64,000 nucleotides of DNA from a virus (IMGVR_UViG_3300049792_000048:32001-96000), one strand, 5' to 3'; positions 5,287-63,756 are shown, counted from the first letter of the stretch. Translations and numbers: made by a program. Notes: generated by a model from the sequence alone, not told the origin.

Positions 5287-5605
5287 AGTCGAGGCGGAAG
5301 AGCCACTTCCGCGTGATCCTGGGCAGCGGCTGCTGACCGCAATCCTGGTGCGTGCCATCAGGGACTTCGTCAACTACCGCGAGGCCAGCAAGGGCACCGA
5401 TTCGATTCGGATCGCCGAAGACGCCGCGGGTTGGATCTTCTGGGACGGCAAGGAGGACATGACCTTCCGGCACGTCTGCACCTCCCTCAACATGAACTAC
5501 AGGGACGTCCGCCGTCGCATCCTCACGCTGACGAAAGAGGACCTGGTTCGCATGACTCCTCCGGAGAACGACGAGGCAGTTGGCTCCGACGAAGATGAAG
5601 ACTGA
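5261..5605 (+). CDS. Hypothetical protein (possible small DNA-binding protein)
   Basis: QRLLTAILVRAIRD...AAGWIF...TFRHVCTSLNM pattern; start uncertain (5234 or 5261). Confidence 0.6.
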   Translation: MLRQSSSYEVEAEEPLPRDPGQRLLTAILVRAIRDFVNYREASKGTDSIRIAEDAAGWIFWDGKEDMTFRHVCTSLNMNYRDVRRRILTLTKEDLVRMTPPENDEAVGSDEDED

Positions 5606-8136
5606 TGGCGGGATACACCTCAGAAGAGCTCCAGGCGAGCATCGATCAGTTCCTCTTGAGCACGGTCACGACCCCCAAGACGAACCTTGGTGCACGCGAC
5701 GTGCTGGCTGCACGGTCGGACATCTATGCCCTTCTGACGACCACGCTTCTTCTTCGCCCTGACAGCTACTTCTACGTGATCTGGCTGGCGAAGAATCGGC
5801 TCGAAGCTCTTCGTCGACAGCAGGCCGCAGCCCTCGCTGTCATCCTGGATCCCGCAACCACAGCGTCCCTTCGTCGACGAGGAAAGCCGGTGACCTCCAC
5901 CGCTGAGCTGACGAATGCTCAGGCGGCGCTGGTGAATGTCACTGCGGGCATCAATCAGGGTCAGGGTGTTCAGACCCGGGATCTCGGTCCCGAAGTGACT
6001 CGCTTCCGAAACAGCGTCGAGCGTTTCATCAACACGCAGATCAAGAGCAACGTCGTCAGCAACGGCGTGCCCACGGAGACCGCCGGCGAGACACGAGCTC
6101 GCATCGCGTCCTCGTGGGCGACCGTGAAGACGACACACGAACAGATGCTGGTGCTCTGCACGGCAATCATCGATGCCGTCAGCAACTTGAACTCGGTGAA
6201 GTTGCCGGAGCAGGCGGTCACGGGAGTCGTCTCGAAGCTTCAGGCCCGACTCACCGAGCTCACGGCTCAGCTTCAGGCGGACAAGGATGTCTCCACGCAC
6301 CGCGAGGCCATGCTCGACCTCTTGACGATGCGCACTCTGTTGGCCCGCGTGTCGTCCTTCCGTACGCCCCAACAGCTCCTGGCCCCTCTTGTCGGAGACT
6401 CCTCGCAGCTCACAGGCACTGGAGGAGTGAGTCCTGCGGCAATCGTTGGGACGAACAGTGGTCCCTTCAACGTGGCTCCGGCAGCCACGCTCGACTTCGA
6501 GTCAGGTAGTCCGATCGTCCCGTCGAGCATCACAATCGGGGCCTATAGCAACGCAGAAGCCCCCTCCCGTCAGTTCACCACCCTTCCCATCGTCTTCCCT
6601 GCGGGCGCGGCGCTCCGTCTCCGTGTCGATGGGGTCCTGTACCCGTCGGACGGGTCCTTCAGTAGCGCTTCTTACGCGTCGGTCGCGCTGTTCCTCACCG
6701 CCATTCAGAGCTACCTGACGGCGAACGTGGTGCCGGCAACGGCCTTCAGCGTCGGTACCCAGGTCTTCATCCGCAGCAACAGCTCTGCGGATGTCAGCAG
6801 CATCGAGGTGGTATCGGCAACGCTGGGACAGGCCGCGTTCCTCGTGGTCTCCGGCTTTGCTCCATACTCGGTGTGCCGTGGTGTCGAAGCGAAGACGATC
6901 ATCTCCGCAGCCACGTCTTCGCCAGGGGTACGGCTGTCTGAGATCAGGACCGAGTACTTCACGGGAAACGGAGTGACCCAGGCATCGTCGGTCATTCGCG
7001 TCGCAACCGTCCTCGGAACTGTGGATACGGCTGGCGGAGGGAGTTCGTTCTCTGCGGCTGAGAACATCGAGAATGCAGGAGTGAAGGTCAACGACTTCAT
7101 CATCATCGATCCGACGGGCACCGCACAGGTCGGAAAGATCACGCGGGTCTCGGGGGCCAGTTTTGATGTTGATGTTGATGTCTCCGACGTCGGGATCGTG
7201 GCCTACCGGGTCGGTCCGGATTTTCGCGGAGTTCCGGCTGGAGCTCGGGTGTTGGTCGGGTCGCCCACCGTCCCACTCAACCGAGGCCCCTATCGTGTCA
7301 TGTCGGGGACGATTGGTCAGATCACTGTCAACAGGACCTTCTTCACCACAAGCGACCCGATCTCCCTGACCGTCTTCACGTCGTACTTGCAGGCCACTGC
7401 CCCAGCTGCGACATCAGCCGATGGCATCACGGCTAACCCGTCCAGCGGAGGAGCGACGGCGGTCGGCTACACGGTCACGCCCACACAGACGAAGCCTGGG
7501 CTCACAGACTTCGTCTCGGGCGGGACGATCGACTTCTTCTCCCGAGGTGTCGGGGTTGGCGACTTCCTCACCCTGCTGACGGCTCCTTCGGCTGCGGTGA
7601 CCACCATCACCGAGGTCTTCATGGACGAGCTCATCGTCGAGCCGACCCCGTTCTTCGCAGGGTCGATTGGCTTCACCGTACAGAGCGCTCGCTACGCGTC
7701 GTGGACTATCTTGGTCAACGCCATCACGTCGTTCGTGAACGGCGCCGACTTCGGGGCAGCCGACTTCGCCATTACGCGCATTCTCAGTGGAGCAGACCCA
7801 CAGGTCCTGCTTTCGTCTTTTGGTCCGGTGGGCTTGTTTTCGACACAGGTCACATCTCTGGCGAGCATTCAGAACTACGTCGTTCCATTCGAGCGTACCG
7901 TCGACAACATCTTGAGGATGTTGGTCGAGCAGGGGTTCGATCGTGCCGCCGACCTCTTCACCACGCTTCAGGTGGTCGAGTTCTTCAGCATGCATCCTGA
8001 TGGCTCGTCCTATTCGACGAACCTGATCCGCGTCGCTGCGGATGTCACCAGGCAGGTCGCCCCGGTGTCCCGTTTCGCGAAGTCTGTGATCAACAGCCCA
8101 GAAGTGCGCCTACGCTCTCGTCGGATGACGACCTGA
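5605..8136 (+). CDS. Large virion structural protein (baseplate/tail associated)
   Basis: 843 aa; helical N-terminus, beta-rich body with GVxxGD modules; lies next to baseplate genes. Confidence 0.65.
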   Translation: MAGYTSEELQASIDQFLLSTVTTPKTNLGARDVLAARSDIYALLTTTLLLRPDSYFYVIWLAKNRLEALRRQQAAALAVILDPATTASLRRRGKPVTSTAELTNAQAALVNVTAGINQGQGVQTRDLGPEVTRFRNSVERFINTQIKSNVVSNGVPTETAGETRARIASSWATVKTTHEQMLVLCTAIIDAVSNLNSVKLPEQAVTGVVSKLQARLTELTAQLQADKDVSTHREAMLDLLTMRTLLARVSSFRTPQQLLAPLVGDSSQLTGTGGVSPAAIVGTNSGPFNVAPAATLDFESGSPIVPSSITIGAYSNAEAPSRQFTTLPIVFPAGAALRLRVDGVLYPSDGSFSSASYASVALFLTAIQSYLTANVVPATAFSVGTQVFIRSNSSADVSSIEVVSATLGQAAFLVVSGFAPYSVCRGVEAKTIISAATSSPGVRLSEIRTEYFTGNGVTQASSVIRVATVLGTVDTAGGGSSFSAAENIENAGVKVNDFIIIDPTGTAQVGKITRVSGASFDVDVDVSDVGIVAYRVGPDFRGVPAGARVLVGSPTVPLNRGPYRVMSGTIGQITVNRTFFTTSDPISLTVFTSYLQATAPAATSADGITANPSSGGATAVGYTVTPTQTKPGLTDFVSGGTIDFFSRGVGVGDFLTLLTAPSAAVTTITEVFMDELIVEPTPFFAGSIGFTVQSARYASWTILVNAITSFVNGADFGAADFAITRILSGADPQVLLSSFGPVGLFSTQVTSLASIQNYVVPFERTVDNILRMLVEQGFDRAADLFTTLQVVEFFSMHPDGSSYSTNLIRVAADVTRQVAPVSRFAKSVINSPEVRLRSRRMTT

Positions 8137-21846: not shown

Positions 21847-22331
21847 GGGCCCTATCGGTCCTTCTGGTGGTTCTGCTGATTGCGGCCCCTGTACAGGCCC
21901 AGGAGGGCGCTCCGGTGCCCGAGGGGGACGTGGATGTCCCGACAGGCCCCGATGTCATCGTGGTGGCACGGGAGGGCGTGGCTGCTCCCTTCACGGGGCA
22001 GCTCTTCGACCAAGCCACGGCCCTGCGCTGGGGAAATCGGCTCGTCCGCTACCGGATGCGCATCCATCTCCTCGAAGAGGAGCTGAACATGACCAGGGCG
22101 GCGTATGACGCCTCGATCGCTCAGCGTCTCGATCTCCAAGCTCAGTCCTATGGCCGGGAGATCGACGGGCTGAGGACCGACCTTCGAGATCAGGCGACGA
22201 GGTACGAGAGCGAGCTGGCGCGGTACAGGAACCAGCCGTTCTGGGAGTCCTGGGGCTTCGCGTTCGGCATGGGCGCTCTCGTCGTCGCGATCGTCGTTGC
22301 GGTCGTTGGGGCTGCCATCTTCGCGCACTAG
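21843..22331 (+). CDS. Signal-peptide protein with coiled coil and C-terminal TM (spanin-like candidate)
   Basis: MRALSVLLVVLLIAAPVQA signal peptide, no lipobox Cys; C-terminal TM. Confidence 0.55.
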   Translation: MRALSVLLVVLLIAAPVQAQEGAPVPEGDVDVPTGPDVIVVAREGVAAPFTGQLFDQATALRWGNRLVRYRMRIHLLEEELNMTRAAYDASIAQRLDLQAQSYGREIDGLRTDLRDQATRYESELARYRNQPFWESWGFAFGMGALVVAIVVAVVGAAIFAH

Positions 22332-23008
22332 CTCTTGTAGATGTTGTAGACCTTGCGATAGAGCGGGTCCTGCAACACTGCATGCGTGCGGATGTCGATG
22401 GCCTTCATCTTCAGCCGATTCATGATGTCGTCACGGAACGGCCACATGAAGTAGTACGCCGAGCCCGTGAACTCGTTGGCGTAGAAGGTGTAGTCCGCCT
22501 CCACGAACTCGCCGCCTGTCCAGTAGCGGATGGCCATCATCATGGCGTAGCCGCGTAGCTCGACATCACGCCGGCTCGGAGACGGCAGAGGCAGAAGGGC
22601 GAGCAAGAAGATCAGCGCGAGGAGGAACCAGGGGCTCCAGAGCGCAATCAATGCGAAGAGGGCGAGCGCCGCCAAAATCTGCGGAAACGCGTTGCGCAGA
22701 AACATGAGCACTACACCATCTTTCTGCGCCTCCTTCATGTGGACGAGCTCGTGGGCGAGGACCCCGGCGACTGCCTCCTGATTGTCGAGGAGGTACTGGC
22801 GAGAGGGGATGTACACCGTGGCTCCTGCGGTCGTCGTGAACCGCGTCATGAAGCCCTTGTTGAAGAGCTGGGCGAAGAGGTTGAGGAACTTCATCCAGTC
22901 CGATTCGTTCTTGAACGTGAGCTCGAACCCGGGGATCTCCTCGTCGCAGAGGTCGATCATGCCGAGGAGTCTCTTGTTCGTGATGCCATCGATCATGGGC
23001 TTCATCAT
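22328..23008 (-). CDS. Membrane-associated HExxH zinc metallopeptidase-like protein
   Basis: LAHELVH, TM hairpin, downstream ELRGY; AGGAG RBS before ATG 23008. Confidence 0.75.
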   Translation of the reverse strand: MMKPMIDGITNKRLLGMIDLCDEEIPGFELTFKNESDWMKFLNLFAQLFNKGFMTRFTTTAGATVYIPSRQYLLDNQEAVAGVLAHELVHMKEAQKDGVVLMFLRNAFPQILAALALFALIALWSPWFLLALIFLLALLPLPSPSRRDVELRGYAMMMAIRYWTGGEFVEADYTFYANEFTGSAYYFMWPFRDDIMNRLKMKAIDIRTHAVLQDPLYRKVYNIYKS

Positions 23009-23023
23009 GTCTCCTGAGAGGGG

Positions 23024-23062
23024 CAAAAGAAACGGGGCACTACGACGAATCGTAGCACCCCA
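23024..23062 (-). terminator. Rho-independent terminator ending the replication operon
   Basis: Minus strand GGGGTGCTACGA-TTCG-TCGTAGTGCCCC-GTTTCTTTT. Confidence 0.85.
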
Positions 23063-23072
23063 TTTCCCCCCA

Positions 23073-23300
23073 TCACGTCTCGTGGACGTGCTGCATGATC
23101 TCGGTGAGGAGCTTGCCGCGCTCCGCTTGCACTTTTTGGACGTTGATGCCGACCTGGTAGGCGAGACCTACCAGGTCCTGCATCGACATCTCACGCAGCT
23201 CCTCAACCGAGAAACTGATGAGCTGGTCGGCGTCGAGTGGTGTCAGCCCTTCAATGGCTGCTGCAACATCGACTTGCGGAGCCGACGGCTCGCTCAGCCG
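23073..23300 (-). CDS. -1 frame extension of the 23836 ORF (75 aa, Rho-N/HeH-like helical domain)
   Basis: Open frame RLSEPSAPQ...SVEELREMSMQDLVGLAYQVGINVQKVQAERGKLLTEIMQHVHET*; no RBS plus start at its 5' end; entered at the slippery site GGGAAAC. Confidence 0.65.
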   Translation of the reverse strand, partial: RLSEPSAPQVDVAAAIEGLTPLDADQLISFSVEELREMSMQDLVGLAYQVGINVQKVQAERGKLLTEIMQHVHET

Positions 23301-23836
23301 TTTCCCGAGGCGAGCTCACCGATGCTCTTCCCCGCGAACTCGGCGAGGACGTCGGCGTCCGCCGCGAGCTGGAGGCTGTCCGCCATGCTCGGGTTCAGGA
23401 GGATGAGCTTCAGGAGCGTCTCGACGTTCGTGGACGTGACCGCGAGGCTGTCGAGCTTCGCGTCCATCTCCGCGAGCTTGGCGATGACGGGACCGAGGTC
23501 GACGCTGCCACCTCCTCCGCCCGTGCTCGCCGTCGTGGTGGTCTTGGCGCCCGCAGCAGCGGCCGGTGCCGCCGCCTTCTTCGCCCCCGCGGGAGCCGCA
23601 GCCGTCTTCTTCGCCCCCGTCGTCGAACCCGGGACGCGCTCCTCCTGGATCTGCGCGATCCGCTGCGCCCGCTCCGTCGGCTGCATGCGGGCGTACTCCG
23701 TCGCCGGCACCTTCAGCTCCTTCAGCGCGGCCACGATCGCCTCGCGGGAGTCCTTCTCGGTCCAGGTGGCACCGAGCTGCTCCCACTCGGTCGCCGTGCG
23801 CATCGGGATGTTCTCCGGCCATTTCGCGTTGCTCAT
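23294..23836 (-). CDS. Hypothetical protein with an Ala/Lys-rich (histone H1-like) linker; probable nucleic-acid binder
   Basis: GAGGA RBS; AKKTAAAPAGAKKAAAPAAA; strong codon bias; ends ...GGA AAC GGC TGA. Confidence 0.8.
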   Translation of the reverse strand: MSNAKWPENIPMRTATEWEQLGATWTEKDSREAIVAALKELKVPATEYARMQPTERAQRIAQIQEERVPGSTTGAKKTAAAPAGAKKAAAPAAAAGAKTTTTASTGGGGGSVDLGPVIAKLAEMDAKLDSLAVTSTNVETLLKLILLNPSMADSLQLAADADVLAEFAGKSIGELASGNG

Positions 23837-24186
23837 GTCGTCGATCCTCTCTTCTTTGTGTCCAGAACCAGATTACGGTGATTGTCCAACGTGCACTCCG
23901 CGACCTGAACATCAGGACACGAAAAGCACGCATGGGGCTTGCGCGACTTCATGGGGCACGAGATCAGGGGAGACACCTGATCCCAGTGCGAGTCGCAGTA
24001 CTTGAAGATGGTCGCCCTCCAGATGTCAATGTGACGTTCCGGAAGTTCGACTTCCTCGCCTCGGATGATGGCGTAGAGCACTTCACGCGGAAGTCCGCGA
24101 TGGGCTCCCGGGTTCATGTACCAGGCCATCATCCCGAGCTCCGACGCATTGAGCTCGTCGAGGAAACTCCAACTTGCGTCAGCCAC
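23833..24186 (-). CDS. Cys-containing hypothetical protein
   Basis: Overlapping operon gene; C...CFSC...C. Confidence 0.7.
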   Translation of the reverse strand: MADASWSFLDELNASELGMMAWYMNPGAHRGLPREVLYAIIRGEEVELPERHIDIWRATIFKYCDSHWDQVSPLISCPMKSRKPHACFSCPDVQVAECTLDNHRNLVLDTKKRGSTT

Positions 24187-60440: not shown

Positions 60441-61340
60441 ATGAACATCAACATCGAACACCCAGCCCGCAACTACATCGCCTTCCTCCTCTCGCAACGC
60501 CGCTTCAAGGTCAATGAGCTGGTCGCCCAGCTCATGCGCCAGAACATGCCGGTGCCACGGGAGGAGAAGGTGCTCAGCGCCTTCATGGAGATCCTCCAGC
60601 TTGCGCAGCGTGGTCTTCAGTTCCCGGCGGGCTACGACCCCACCAACCTGAAGCACCAGCCGACGTCGCTGTTCCTGCACGCCCACCGCATCTATGACCT
60701 GTGGGCACGGGAACCCCACGTCATGTTTGCAATCGACATCCTGGACCAGCCTTCAGTTCGTCGAGAGCTGGAGATCATGCTGCTCGGTCCGCTCAACTAC
60801 CGCGACATCGCCAAGCGCCTCGCGATCGGACATGGTCTCGACCCCGAGGTGATGAACATCTCGACCGTCCGCTACTACGCTCACTACTTCTGGAACATCG
60901 AAGCAGTGCCGATGACGAAGTGGCCGATCCTGTTGGAGGGCATGCCCAACTCCATCGACTACTCGACGGTGTTCCTCGCTCCCCGCAGCCAGGTCGGTGC
61001 TGCGCTGAGTGTGTTCATCGCGTCACGTGGTGCCGGTGGCGTCCCCAAGGAATCGATCATGTTCCGGTACGTCCGGGACACCTCCTTCATGGAGTTCATC
61101 AAGCTGACGGCCACCCGCTATCCCGGCATGCAGAAGGCGACTGCGATGCAGGCGCTGGTGAACAGCCTCATCGCTGCTCAAGAGCAGGTCGACATGCGTC
61201 GTGGTGGTAGCGCCGAGCTCCTCGATGAGCTCCGGAAGATGGACACCAAGTTCGATCCCAAGCGCCTGACAAGCGTCGAGGAACTGCCCCTCTACAACAT
61301 GTTGGAGGCGCAAAACACAGAAAAGGGAAATGCGTCATGA
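60441..61340 (+). CDS. Hypothetical protein
   Basis: 299-aa helical ORF upstream of the terminase. Confidence 0.7.
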   Translation: MNINIEHPARNYIAFLLSQRRFKVNELVAQLMRQNMPVPREEKVLSAFMEILQLAQRGLQFPAGYDPTNLKHQPTSLFLHAHRIYDLWAREPHVMFAIDILDQPSVRRELEIMLLGPLNYRDIAKRLAIGHGLDPEVMNISTVRYYAHYFWNIEAVPMTKWPILLEGMPNSIDYSTVFLAPRSQVGAALSVFIASRGAGGVPKESIMFRYVRDTSFMEFIKLTATRYPGMQKATAMQALVNSLIAAQEQVDMRRGGSAELLDELRKMDTKFDPKRLTSVEELPLYNMLEAQNTEKGNAS

Positions 61341-61729
61341 CGAACCCCGCAACCGACGAGATCAAGAATATCGCGCAGCTCAGCGAGGAGGAGCGCATCC
61401 GCCCCGACCTCCCGGAGATGCAGGCGATCGCCCGGCCCCGCTACACCATGGAGTGGGGCGTCCGGGAGCGTGACAACGCGTTGGTCATCCACATCTTCCC
61501 GCAGATCGAAGGCGACAACGTCGCCGACAAGTGGGACGAGACGTACGCGATGGACAAGCGGCTCGACTACGCCATCCCGCAGATGTTCGAGGTCCCCAAC
61601 GTCCACGCCGGGTTCGAGGCCGAGTTCAACTCGTTCTTCATCATCGTCCAGGGCGTGATCGCGCCGGACCTGCGTCTGCTCGTCCAGCGGTTCCTGGAGC
61701 AGATCGAGGGGGCTCCGGTCTCTCACTGA
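61337..61729 (+). CDS. Hypothetical protein
   Basis: AAGGGA RBS; ATGA overlap. Confidence 0.7.
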   Translation: MTNPATDEIKNIAQLSEEERIRPDLPEMQAIARPRYTMEWGVRERDNALVIHIFPQIEGDNVADKWDETYAMDKRLDYAIPQMFEVPNVHAGFEAEFNSFFIIVQGVIAPDLRLLVQRFLEQIEGAPVSH

Positions 61730-61911: not shown

Positions 61912-63756
61912 ATGGTTCCAGAGATGGCGGTCAGGGTTGGCTTCGACGAAGATGAAGATCGTGACATGGCCGTTGAGTACGGTGTACGTGTTAGCGACCT
62001 GGAGTACAAGCTGGCCCAGGCGAAACAGGCCAAGACCGGGAGGATCCAGCTCCTGACATCCGAGTGGGTCACCGCCTTCATCCGCATCAAGGATGGCGAC
62101 ACCGGCGCCGCAGTCCCTCTCGTGTTTGACGAGCGCAAGTACCTCAAGCGCATCTACGACACTCCCGCCCGCAAGGTGCTGCTCTTCACGAGCCGTCAGA
62201 CCGAGAAGTCGACGACGATCGGCAACCGCATCTTCGGCCGTGCCGGCATGCGCCCCGGGCACACGTCGCTGTTCGTGTCTCCCTCGGCGATGCAGACGGC
62301 CGTCTTCTCGAAGACACGCCTGAACGAGATCATCGACATCAGCCCGCTCATCAAGGCGCAGACCCACGAGGCGCTCACGAACAACCTGTTCGAGAAGCAC
62401 TTCGCGAATGGCTCGAAGATCTACCTCCGGTACGCCTTCCTCACTGCCGACCGTATCCGTGGTCTGTCCGTGAACGATCTCTTCCTCGACGAGATTCAGG
62501 ACTTGGTCTCGACGACCATGCCCGTCATTGAAGAGACGACGTCCCACCACCAGGACACCTTGTTCGTGTACTCGGGAACTCCCAAGAGCATGGACAACAA
62601 CATCCACCACTACTGGGCGGACAACTCGACCGCCAGTGAGTGGTGCATTCCGTGTGAGCACCATGGTCTGCCGAACATGCCGGCGACCTGGCACTGGAAC
62701 ATCCTCAGTGAGAAGAACCTGGGCAAGGATGGCCCCATCTGTGACCGCTGCGGGCACGCCATCAATCCCGAGCACCCGTACGCTCGCTGGGTGGAGATGC
62801 AGAAGCTCGACAACGAGCGCATCACCTTCGAGGGCTACCGCGTCTGTCGTCTGATGGTGCCCTGGTTCTGGAAGTCGCCCAAGAAGTGGAAGGAGATCCT
62901 CGCCGCCCGAGAGCGCTACCCCACGGCGCAGTTCATGAACGAGGTCCTTGCGATCTCCTACGACTCCGCCTCGAAGCCGATCTCCAAGCTGGAGCTCATC
63001 CAGACCTGCGAGCCGAAGATCGAGAACAATCTGGAGACGGCGTACAAAATCGCCCAGAACAACACCACGTTCTTCGGCATCGATTGGGGCAGTGGCGAGC
63101 GAGCCTTCACCGTGCTCACGATGGGTGCCTACTGTCGGGACGACGCCGCTTTCCAGATCTTCTTCATGATGCGTTTCGTCGGCCCGCTGACGGACCCGAT
63201 CGCACAGATGGATGAGATAGAGTCCCTCGTCACACGCTTCCGTCCAAAGTATGTAGGCACCGACTTCGGCTTCGGCTTCTACCAGAACAAGCGTCTGCTC
63301 TCGAAGTTCGGCATGCAGCGGATCTTCCCGTTCGAGTATGCGGCCCGCTTGAACATGAAGCTGAAGTATGTCCCGAAGCTTCACCGCACCGTTGCGTTCC
63401 GTACCCCACTCATGTCGGACATGTTCGTGGCGCTGAAGCGTCGTAAGGTGCGTCTACCGAAGTGGTCCACGATCGAGCGGCCGTACGGTGACGACTTCTT
63501 GAACATCCATGCCGAGGACTCCGACAACCTTCGGATGATCAAGTACGACAAGCCGAAGGGGAAGACTGACGACTCCTTTCACGCCTCCCTGTACTGTTTG
63601 CTCGCGTCCATGTTGGAGCACAAGCGTCCCGACATCATCGCTCCCTTCAAGGAAGAGGAAGAGTCGCGGCTCGCTGGCTATGTCAGTGACGATGCTTACG
63701 ACGGGGAGATCCCCTACTCGTACGGCGACCCAGGCGACGGCTTCAACAACACCTAG
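61912..63756 (+). CDS. terL: Terminase large subunit
   Basis: SRQTEKST (Walker A), RIRG, LFLDEIQD, SGTPK, GIDWG, DDSFHA; start uncertain (61912, 61924 or 61966). Confidence 0.9.
   Translation: MVPEMAVRVGFDEDEDRDMAVEYGVRVSDLEYKLAQAKQAKTGRIQLLTSEWVTAFIRIKDGDTGAAVPLVFDERKYLKRIYDTPARKVLLFTSRQTEKSTTIGNRIFGRAGMRPGHTSLFVSPSAMQTAVFSKTRLNEIIDISPLIKAQTHEALTNNLFEKHFANGSKIYLRYAFLTADRIRGLSVNDLFLDEIQDLVSTTMPVIEETTSHHQDTLFVYSGTPKSMDNNIHHYWADNSTASEWCIPCEHHGLPNMPATWHWNILSEKNLGKDGPICDRCGHAINPEHPYARWVEMQKLDNERITFEGYRVCRLMVPWFWKSPKKWKEILAARERYPTAQFMNEVLAISYDSASKPISKLELIQTCEPKIENNLETAYKIAQNNTTFFGIDWGSGERAFTVLTMGAYCRDDAAFQIFFMMRFVGPLTDPIAQMDEIESLVTRFRPKYVGTDFGFGFYQNKRLLSKFGMQRIFPFEYAARLNMKLKYVPKLHRTVAFRTPLMSDMFVALKRRKVRLPKWSTIERPYGDDFLNIHAEDSDNLRMIKYDKPKGKTDDSFHASLYCLLASMLEHKRPDIIAPFKEEEESRLAGYVSDDAYDGEIPYSYGDPGDGFNNT

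Follow-up and report, generated by a model that had tools for sequence, protein, structure and literature searches.

A putative programmed −1 ribosomal frameshift at a conserved slip site in a recombination-module gene of large soil phages

Toward the end of a group of minus-strand genes in a soil phage of 196 kb, the open reading frame (ORF) of a 180-aa protein closes with TCG GGA AAC GGC TGA, and the −1 frame running beneath it remains open well past that stop. This raises the question of whether the locus encodes a programmed −1 ribosomal frameshift that appends a hidden C-terminal module to some copies of the protein, or whether two ordinary genes, a sequence error, or chance could account for the same arrangement. 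The DNA analyzed here, referred to as the window, is a stretch of 64,000 nt from a complete virus record of 195,774 bp having direct terminal repeats and 61% GC.

The locus and its reading frames

Pfam and PHROGs place genes for a RecA/UvsX-like protein, a Holliday-junction resolvase, a Cas4-like exonuclease, a RusA-like resolvase, and small proteins upstream on the same strand, and the gene order is kept in the DNA of relatives. With a RecA/UvsX-like protein, a Cas4-like exonuclease, and two resolvases as its neighbors, the gene sits in a recombination/repair module and, in the strict sense, not in the replication operon that a first-pass annotation of this DNA had proposed. The cassette and its immediate surroundings contain the following features:

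23294–23836, minus strand: 0-frame ORF (P0002), 180 aa, ending TCG GGA AAC GGC TGA; it would yield the short isoform
23300–23306, minus strand: slippery heptamer G GGA AAC in X XXY YYZ phase, its first G being codon position 3
23294–23296, minus strand: 0-frame stop, TGA in the window, at the foot of the stem-loop
23214–23298, minus strand: long stem-loop of about 78 nt, with a fold of −35.9 kcal/mol in the window (z −2.63)
23076–23300, minus strand: −1 extension of 75 codons, a 12-residue Pro/Glu-rich connector (RLSEPSAPQVDV) and then a predicted helical module
23025–23070, minus strand: intrinsic terminator, a 21-bp hairpin of −30.4 kcal/mol (z −6.05) with a U tract after it

The 0-frame ORF starts behind a conserved Shine-Dalgarno sequence (GAGAGGA), and the phase originally assigned to the heptamer near its end was confirmed. 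In the −1 frame, a stop at 23318–23316 is followed by an open stretch from 23315 to 23073, which holds 75 sense codons after the slip, starting RLSEPSAPQVDV and matching the count first proposed. Joined to 179 residues of the upstream ORF, these would give a long isoform of 254 aa (179 + 75). It had also been claimed that the extension has no good start of its own, and this agrees with the window, where no ATG, GTG, or TTG lies upstream of an ATG that leaves only 38 aa and where the position of a GTG found in relatives reads GTT. The extension stop codon (23075–23073) directly adjoins the terminator hairpin, again as claimed, and because this hairpin runs into a U tract, the extension is the final coding sequence of its transcription unit.

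Two further observations concern the region downstream. The terminator hairpin has an A-rich stretch (GGGGGGAAAU) on its 5' side as well as the U tract, and it could therefore work in both directions, between units that converge or lie next to each other; one relative (L001) has a closely similar element. The next gene (22328–23026, minus strand, 232 aa), whose synteny is kept in all relatives, contains hydrophobic segments and has a weak, sub-threshold match to peptidase M48 with an HExxH-like stretch (VLAHELVHM).

Taken by itself, the pattern of heptamer and open frame carries little information. GGGAAAC occurs six times in the window versus 5.7 expected, a canonical heptamer falls within the last 15 codons of 8 of the 860 open segments in the 196-kb genome, and five of those eight heptamer-ended segments have a −1 extension of at least 20 codons. 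Such configurations recur several times in this high-GC genome, and a bare heptamer with an open frame was rejected as evidence. Since the bare heptamer pattern is at chance level, the signal to look for is conservation, and the evidence must rest upon the relatives.

Several of the other occurrences merit a description of their own. At 60441–61729 (plus strand), a 299-aa ORF has GGGAAAT five codons before its stop, and a 130-aa ORF (61337–61729) in the −1 frame overlaps it by ATGA, just upstream of the large terminase subunit (61912–63756). Because the second ORF has its own ATG, this pair probably represents ordinary coupled genes; neither the 299-aa nor the 130-aa ORF has a PHROG match. Outside the window, the plus-strand segment at G000:C1:174051 has GGGTTTG nine codons before its stop and a −1 open frame of 195 codons, and the one at G000:C1:188652 (plus strand) has AAAAAAT four codons before its stop and a −1 open frame of 134 codons. 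One of these two could be a tail-chaperone frameshift. An in-phase GGGAAAC is also found at 6963–6969 (plus strand) inside an 845-codon open segment (5599–8136), where the −1 frame closes after three codons, so that a slip would only truncate the protein.

Conservation of the slip site and of the RNA downstream

A search of 5.8 billion proteins returned 16 relatives of 169–188 aa, having 40–83% protein identity, and their DNA was drawn from independent assemblies (IMG/VR, ENA, NCBI, Logan, and JGI). The order GGGAAAC, GGN, stop (TGA or TAG), RCGAGC is present in 17/17 sequences (the window plus the 16 relatives), with the 0-frame stop always exactly one codon after the heptamer. Conservation of the heptamer and the −1 ORF among homologues had been suggested as a check on the frameshift, and for the −1 ORF the result was equally uniform: the extension is exactly 75 codons long in all 14 relatives that reach far enough, there are no indels from the slip site to the domain, and 20 of its residues are invariant. 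No single fused ORF of ~254 aa was found either among the 99–315-aa candidates of the 5.8-billion-protein search or among 1.84 billion cluster representatives, an absence that fits a need for both forms of the protein. Sequence searches of INPHARED phage records with both parts returned nothing, and four more distant extension-like proteins (P0025, P0026, P0028, and P0036) were not found in IMG/VR.

The identity of the individual bases at the slip site can be set against the divergence of the genes around it. At 4-fold sites, pairs of sequences agree at a median of 55% and at most 79% of positions, where saturation would give 43%, and synonymous sites are close to saturated. Among the Gly codons elsewhere in these genes, GGA is the least used (12/220, or 5.5%), and 2% of 4-fold third positions carry A, versus 16/16 GGA at the slip site. 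The other invariant residues with 4- or 6-fold codons (17 columns) each use two or three codons. Likewise, the base before GGA is always G, though the residue to which it belongs varies among Ser, Gly, and Ala. From the alignment, nucleotide-level selection is evident on exactly the positions that would make the site slippery.

Downstream of the heptamer, the 88 nt that follow it were folded alone for the window and 14 relatives. The same architecture is the minimum-energy fold in 15/15 sequences. In the 14 relatives its energy lies between −37 and −50.5 kcal/mol and its z-score between −2.3 and −6.4, and for none of the 15 do more than 4 of 200 shuffles fold as well. An outer stem, (R)CGAGC/GCUCR, begins 5–6 nt after the heptamer, where the classical spacer between heptamer and structure is 5–9 nt (PMC5009743). 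This is followed by a middle stem, GUCGG/CCGAC, which is GCAGGAG/CUCCUGC, GGAGG/CCUCC, or CUCGGGA/UCCCGAG in other members, and then by a 6–9-nt internal loop on the 5' side and an inner hairpin (23273–23232) of at least 17 bp. Pairing is found in 82.8% of the alignment cells of this structure, versus 29–46% when the partners are slid, and 11 of its 29 pairs exhibit double changes, versus 4.9 ± 1.5 in shuffles (0/500 reach 11); the structure so scored includes outer helices that were drawn by eye from the same sequences. With RNAalifold alone, the inner hairpin was all that emerged, since the middle stem changes register from one member to the next. The stem-loop has no family match in Rfam.

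The first-pass annotation had placed a much smaller hairpin at 23293–23276. Although the window sequence allows that hairpin, the relatives do not preserve it, having GGAACC, GGAGCC, and others in place of GGCTCC, and it is absent from the minimum-energy fold of the window itself. Being unconserved, it was discarded as the stimulator. The outer stem of the longer structure includes its 5' arm, and it is this long conserved stem-loop that we consider the putative stimulator. A dnaX-type upstream stimulator resembling a Shine-Dalgarno sequence was also sought, and GGAG-like words were found 8 nt upstream in only some members.

Routes to translation of the extension

Gene callers represent the extension either as a 64-aa ORF, starting from a GTG 27 nt after the stop, or as a 38-aa ORF from a later ATG. 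The stretch ahead of the GTG thus precedes every possible start codon. Across the 24 nt between the 0-frame stop and the GTG, variability by −1 codon position is 0.42/0.64/0.93, and the same measure is 0.66/0.45/0.89 in the clearly coding part downstream of the GTG. The synonymous share of pairwise codon differences is 161/453 in the −1 frame versus 71/449 and 109/434 in the other two. A Pro codon (CCN) is kept in 14/15 sequences with a variable third base, and it is located in the internal loop, unpaired in every fold. The peptide that would be encoded here, R-L/V-x-E-x-x-x-P-x-V/I-D-V, looks like a Pro/Glu-rich inter-domain connector. Although the sample is small, these patterns point to translation of the 24-nt stretch in the −1 frame, in the same direction as the other evidence.

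The GTG itself is present in 13/15 sequences, the exceptions being the window and one relative (L002), which both have GTT. It lies in the 5' arm of the inner hairpin, with its third base (G42) paired to C68, and this RNA pairing alone would suffice to favor GTG over GTC. Predicted anti-Shine-Dalgarno pairing upstream of the GTG amounts to −1.7 to −3.5 kcal/mol in 9/15 sequences, a sign of at most a poor Shine-Dalgarno sequence, and it is about −7.9 kcal/mol at the start of the 180-aa gene, where the sequence is clear; a GGAG occurs about 12 nt upstream of the GTG in five sequences, and the start of the next gene has a clear Shine-Dalgarno sequence in most relatives. A Shine-Dalgarno-like GAGGAG stands 9 nt before the ATG in several sequences.

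A different arrangement is seen in a distant relative, a 201-kb contig (L019), in which the extension homologue is a 91-aa ORF in the +1 frame that overlaps the upstream gene by 44 nt. It has a GTG start with GGAG 6 nt ahead of it, and no XXXYYYZ site is found near the module. Judging from the sequence, L019 most likely encodes the module as a separate 91-aa protein, from which it would follow that the module can act unfused. In the same contig, a single 309-aa ORF (L019:1615–2544) comprises homologues of the 180-aa protein and of a 117-aa Cys-rich protein (C-P-M-x5-6-C-x2-C ... C), whose counterpart in the window is at 23833–24186 (minus strand). Their presence in one ORF suggests that these two proteins act together.

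These observations allow the competing readings to be weighed. The extension might simply be the second of two ordinary neighboring genes, yielding a separate protein of 64 aa (from the GTG) or 38 aa (from the invariant ATG), perhaps by translational coupling, with the heptamer and stem-loop kept for other reasons. The ORFs called in most relatives, the GTG in 13 of 15 sequences, the GAGGAG ahead of the ATG in several of them, and the separate ORF of L019 are all what this reading would predict. It fares poorly elsewhere: the GTG has been lost from the window and L002, its conserved third base is also explained by the pairing with C68, no Shine-Dalgarno sequence is conserved ahead of it, and a hairpin of at least 17 bp encloses it. 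The 36 nt upstream of it vary as coding sequence does and contain no indels, an ATG start would omit 37 conserved residues, and the invariance of the rarest Gly codon together with the preceding G would be left unexplained. We consider the reading unlikely, and the small share of belief that we reserve for it is owed mainly to L019. It is slightly less probable still that both routes operate. The 254-aa fusion would then come from frameshifting, and most relatives would additionally produce some of the 64-aa module in free form by starting at a GTG whose hairpin has been opened by ribosomes that slipped and translated through it. The geometry is suited to this, as the hairpin would be melted only by ribosomes already in the −1 frame, and both the retention of the GTG in 13/15 sequences and the free-standing module of L019 are in keeping with it; nonetheless, the window and L002 lack the GTG, the Shine-Dalgarno sequence is not conserved, and the additional assumption brings no added explanatory power.

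If the assembly were wrong by 1 nt, or if a recent frameshift mutation had split one 254-aa gene, the same bare two-frame arrangement would result, and this arrangement is the only point in favor of an artefact or gene decay. The same frames, heptamer, and stop recur in 17 independent assemblies from different samples that have diverged to 40% protein identity, and large protein collections hold no intact single-frame version; accordingly, this explanation is so improbable that we treat assembly error and pseudogenisation as excluded by the 17 independent, diverged copies. Transcriptional slippage was rejected, as the runs here are only three bases long.

We therefore favor, with considerable confidence, a programmed −1 ribosomal frameshift at G GGA AAC that would produce isoforms of 180 and 254 aa. 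The comparative evidence supports this part of the first-pass annotation, including the appended 75-residue module; its view of the protein as histone-like is not supported. The proposed mechanism is as follows. As ribosomes decode GGA (Gly178) and AAC (Asn179), the mRNA entrance would meet a very stable stem-loop 5–6 nt downstream, and a fraction of them would slip one base back into the −1 frame, with tRNA-Gly re-pairing on GGG and tRNA-Asn on AAA. Ribosomes that do not slip would read one more Gly codon and then the stop, giving 180 aa, while those that slip would add the 12-residue connector followed by a helical module of 63 residues, whose core is Rho_N/SAP/LEM-like, giving 254 aa. Further stimulation may come from the stop codon, which lies 3 nt past the shift site. 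We infer the slip, its efficiency, and the role of the protein from the signals and their conservation, and a fixed ratio of the putative isoforms is plausible. In E. coli, AAC is less slippery than AAG as the A-site codon (PMC5009743), which counts against the proposal.

Protein modules, known frameshift systems, and biological meaning

Structural models were used to describe the two parts of the protein, with the following assignments:

23294–23836, minus strand: 180-aa protein (model mbde47cbd2e21, pLDDT 68.5), predicted to have N-terminal helices, a linker (residues 76–110), a long helix (115–147), and short C-terminal helices
23624–23800, minus strand: predicted N-terminal domain, residues 13–71, matching 1a62_A with Z 4.1 and rmsd 1.8 over 48 residues
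23076–23213, minus strand: probable Rho_N/SAP/LEM-like helix-extended-helix module, extension residues 30–75 (model m1dd3c9398ad9, pLDDT 76)

Among 48,161 PDB representatives, the one that the extension model resembles most is the Rho N-terminal subdomain (1a62_A, residues 1–45; Z 5.8, rmsd 1.6, 45 residues), followed by YqbF (Z 4.5) and by the SAP domains of FAN1, SLX4, Hcc-1, and Ku70 together with the LEM domain of emerin (Z 3.6–4.5), although a helical arrangement that is common among proteins can be enough to produce Z values of this size. The resemblance extends to several Rho_N/SAP/LEM/HeH modules (1a62, YqbF 2hjq, and the SAP domains of SLX4 and FAN1), with core residues 30–75 superposing on Rho 1–45 at rmsd 1.6, as well as to the sequence pattern L..M....L..LA...G(I/V) ... 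RGKLL.EI of the Rho_N/SAP motif. Remote profile matches of the extension include multi-SAP/Rho_N proteins. Pfam Rho_N appears sub-threshold in 9/15 members (best E 0.0015, below the gathering score), and the window's own extension has no Pfam Rho_N match at E ≤ 1. Thus, the Rho-N/HeH resemblance put forward initially gains a best structural match to Rho, at a modest Z, but does not reach the Pfam threshold, and the models make the Rho_N/SAP/LEM-like fold a probable assignment.

The N-terminal domain of the 180-aa model consists of four helices, and its weak matches rank in the same way as those of the extension: Rho N-terminal subdomain, LEM, SAP. According to the models, and at modest Z, the long isoform would probably have a similar small helical module at each end, separated by an Ala/Pro/Lys linker that is disordered in the 180-aa model. 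When the profiles of the 0-frame protein and the extension were compared with each other, no internal duplication emerged (probability 0.6%). No significant family was returned for either part by Pfam or PHROGs, PDB sequence searches gave chance-level matches only, an ESM Atlas feature search found nothing, and Foldseek against the PDB produced no match at E ≤ 0.001 for either model. Homodimer prediction with two copies of residues 108–180 gave a score of 0.06 (mark 0.42), which speaks neither for nor against a dimer.

The label of histone-like protein was not borne out by composition. The 180-aa protein is acidic (pI 5.3, net charge −2.5) and has no HU, H-NS, or H1-like Pfam match, only its 40-residue Ala/Pro/Lys linker is basic (+4), and the extension is likewise acidic (pI 4.5; net −4 to −9 across the family). 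Since the protein and the extension are both acidic, and only the linker is basic, the earlier idea of a nucleoid or RNA-binding function is weak. The extension module is below the Pfam threshold and, unlike a typical nucleic-acid-binding SAP domain, acidic; nucleic-acid binding seems no more likely than protein docking.

Known frameshift systems provide several points of comparison. The E. coli dnaX gene, which encodes tau and gamma, is also a non-structural gene of DNA metabolism in which a heptamer and a stable 3' stem-loop at classical spacing yield isoforms differing in a C-terminal interaction module. In dnaX, slipping takes place on A AAA AAG with the help of a conserved Shine-Dalgarno-like stimulator upstream, whereas the family described here has no conserved upstream element of this kind. 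In addition, the −1 frame of dnaX stops almost at once, so shifting leads to the shorter form, while in the present gene it would lead to the longer one. A parallel for the site itself is offered by the phage tail assembly chaperone G/GT pair (lambda G GGA AAG, KL1), in which a −1 shift on G GGA AAx at the end of the upstream ORF produces short and C-terminally extended forms with a common N-terminal part, an arrangement kept among divergent relatives (PMC5009743, PMC3483164). In the tail chaperone of the Burkholderia phage KL1, the predicted shift site is likewise GGGAAAC directly before TGA (PMC3483164), and GGGAAAC before a stop is reported as a shift site in the archaeal virus HCTV-1 (PMC5009743). 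Unlike G/GT, which sits just upstream of the tape-measure gene, the gene in the window lies between recombination genes and a terminator rather than in a tail module, and no PHROG or Pfam match to the chaperone families was found for it. It also has a large conserved 3' stem-loop, which is not universal among phage frameshift sites (PMC3483164). As for the nearby stop, shifting in PEMV is reported to be efficient only if a stop codon, of any identity, stands 3 nt past the shift site (PMC5009743). The stop in the present family is at exactly the same distance and is either TGA or TAG; PEMV, in contrast, is a eukaryotic RNA virus with another heptamer and another stimulator, and the role of the stop codon in the phage gene is only putative.

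Annotated phage frameshifts belong with few exceptions to tail assembly chaperone genes, which account for 2397 of 2476 joined genes in the SEA-PHAGES set (PMC10885494). The gene described here has all of the classical signals, namely a heptamer, an adjacent stop, and a covarying stem-loop at canonical spacing, outside of the usual tail-chaperone genes, and large soil phages conserve them across a gene family located in an early module of recombination type. In every assembly the gene is called in two pieces, a 180-aa ORF and one of 64 or 38 aa, with the result that the predicted 254-aa product is absent from protein databases. The family offers a clean natural test case for frameshift predictors, could serve for studies of bacterial shifting on an AAC A-site codon, and may give a first handle on the function of a protein with a putative Rho_N/SAP-like module at each end.

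With regard to that function, both isoforms would share the N-terminal domain, the flexible linker, and the long helix, and the long form would gain a second docking module. The two forms may work together in the recombination/repair module, with the extra module serving as a docking domain for protein or DNA on only part of the molecules. We suggest, tentatively and with the odds against it, that the frameshift sets the share of subunits carrying a second, C-terminal Rho_N/SAP-like docking module, and that the protein acts as an adaptor in the recombination machinery of ~200-kb soil phages, as a phage counterpart of dnaX tau/gamma. Were this to be true, the separate +1-frame gene of L019 would indicate that split-gene and frameshift-fusion solutions interconvert in evolution.
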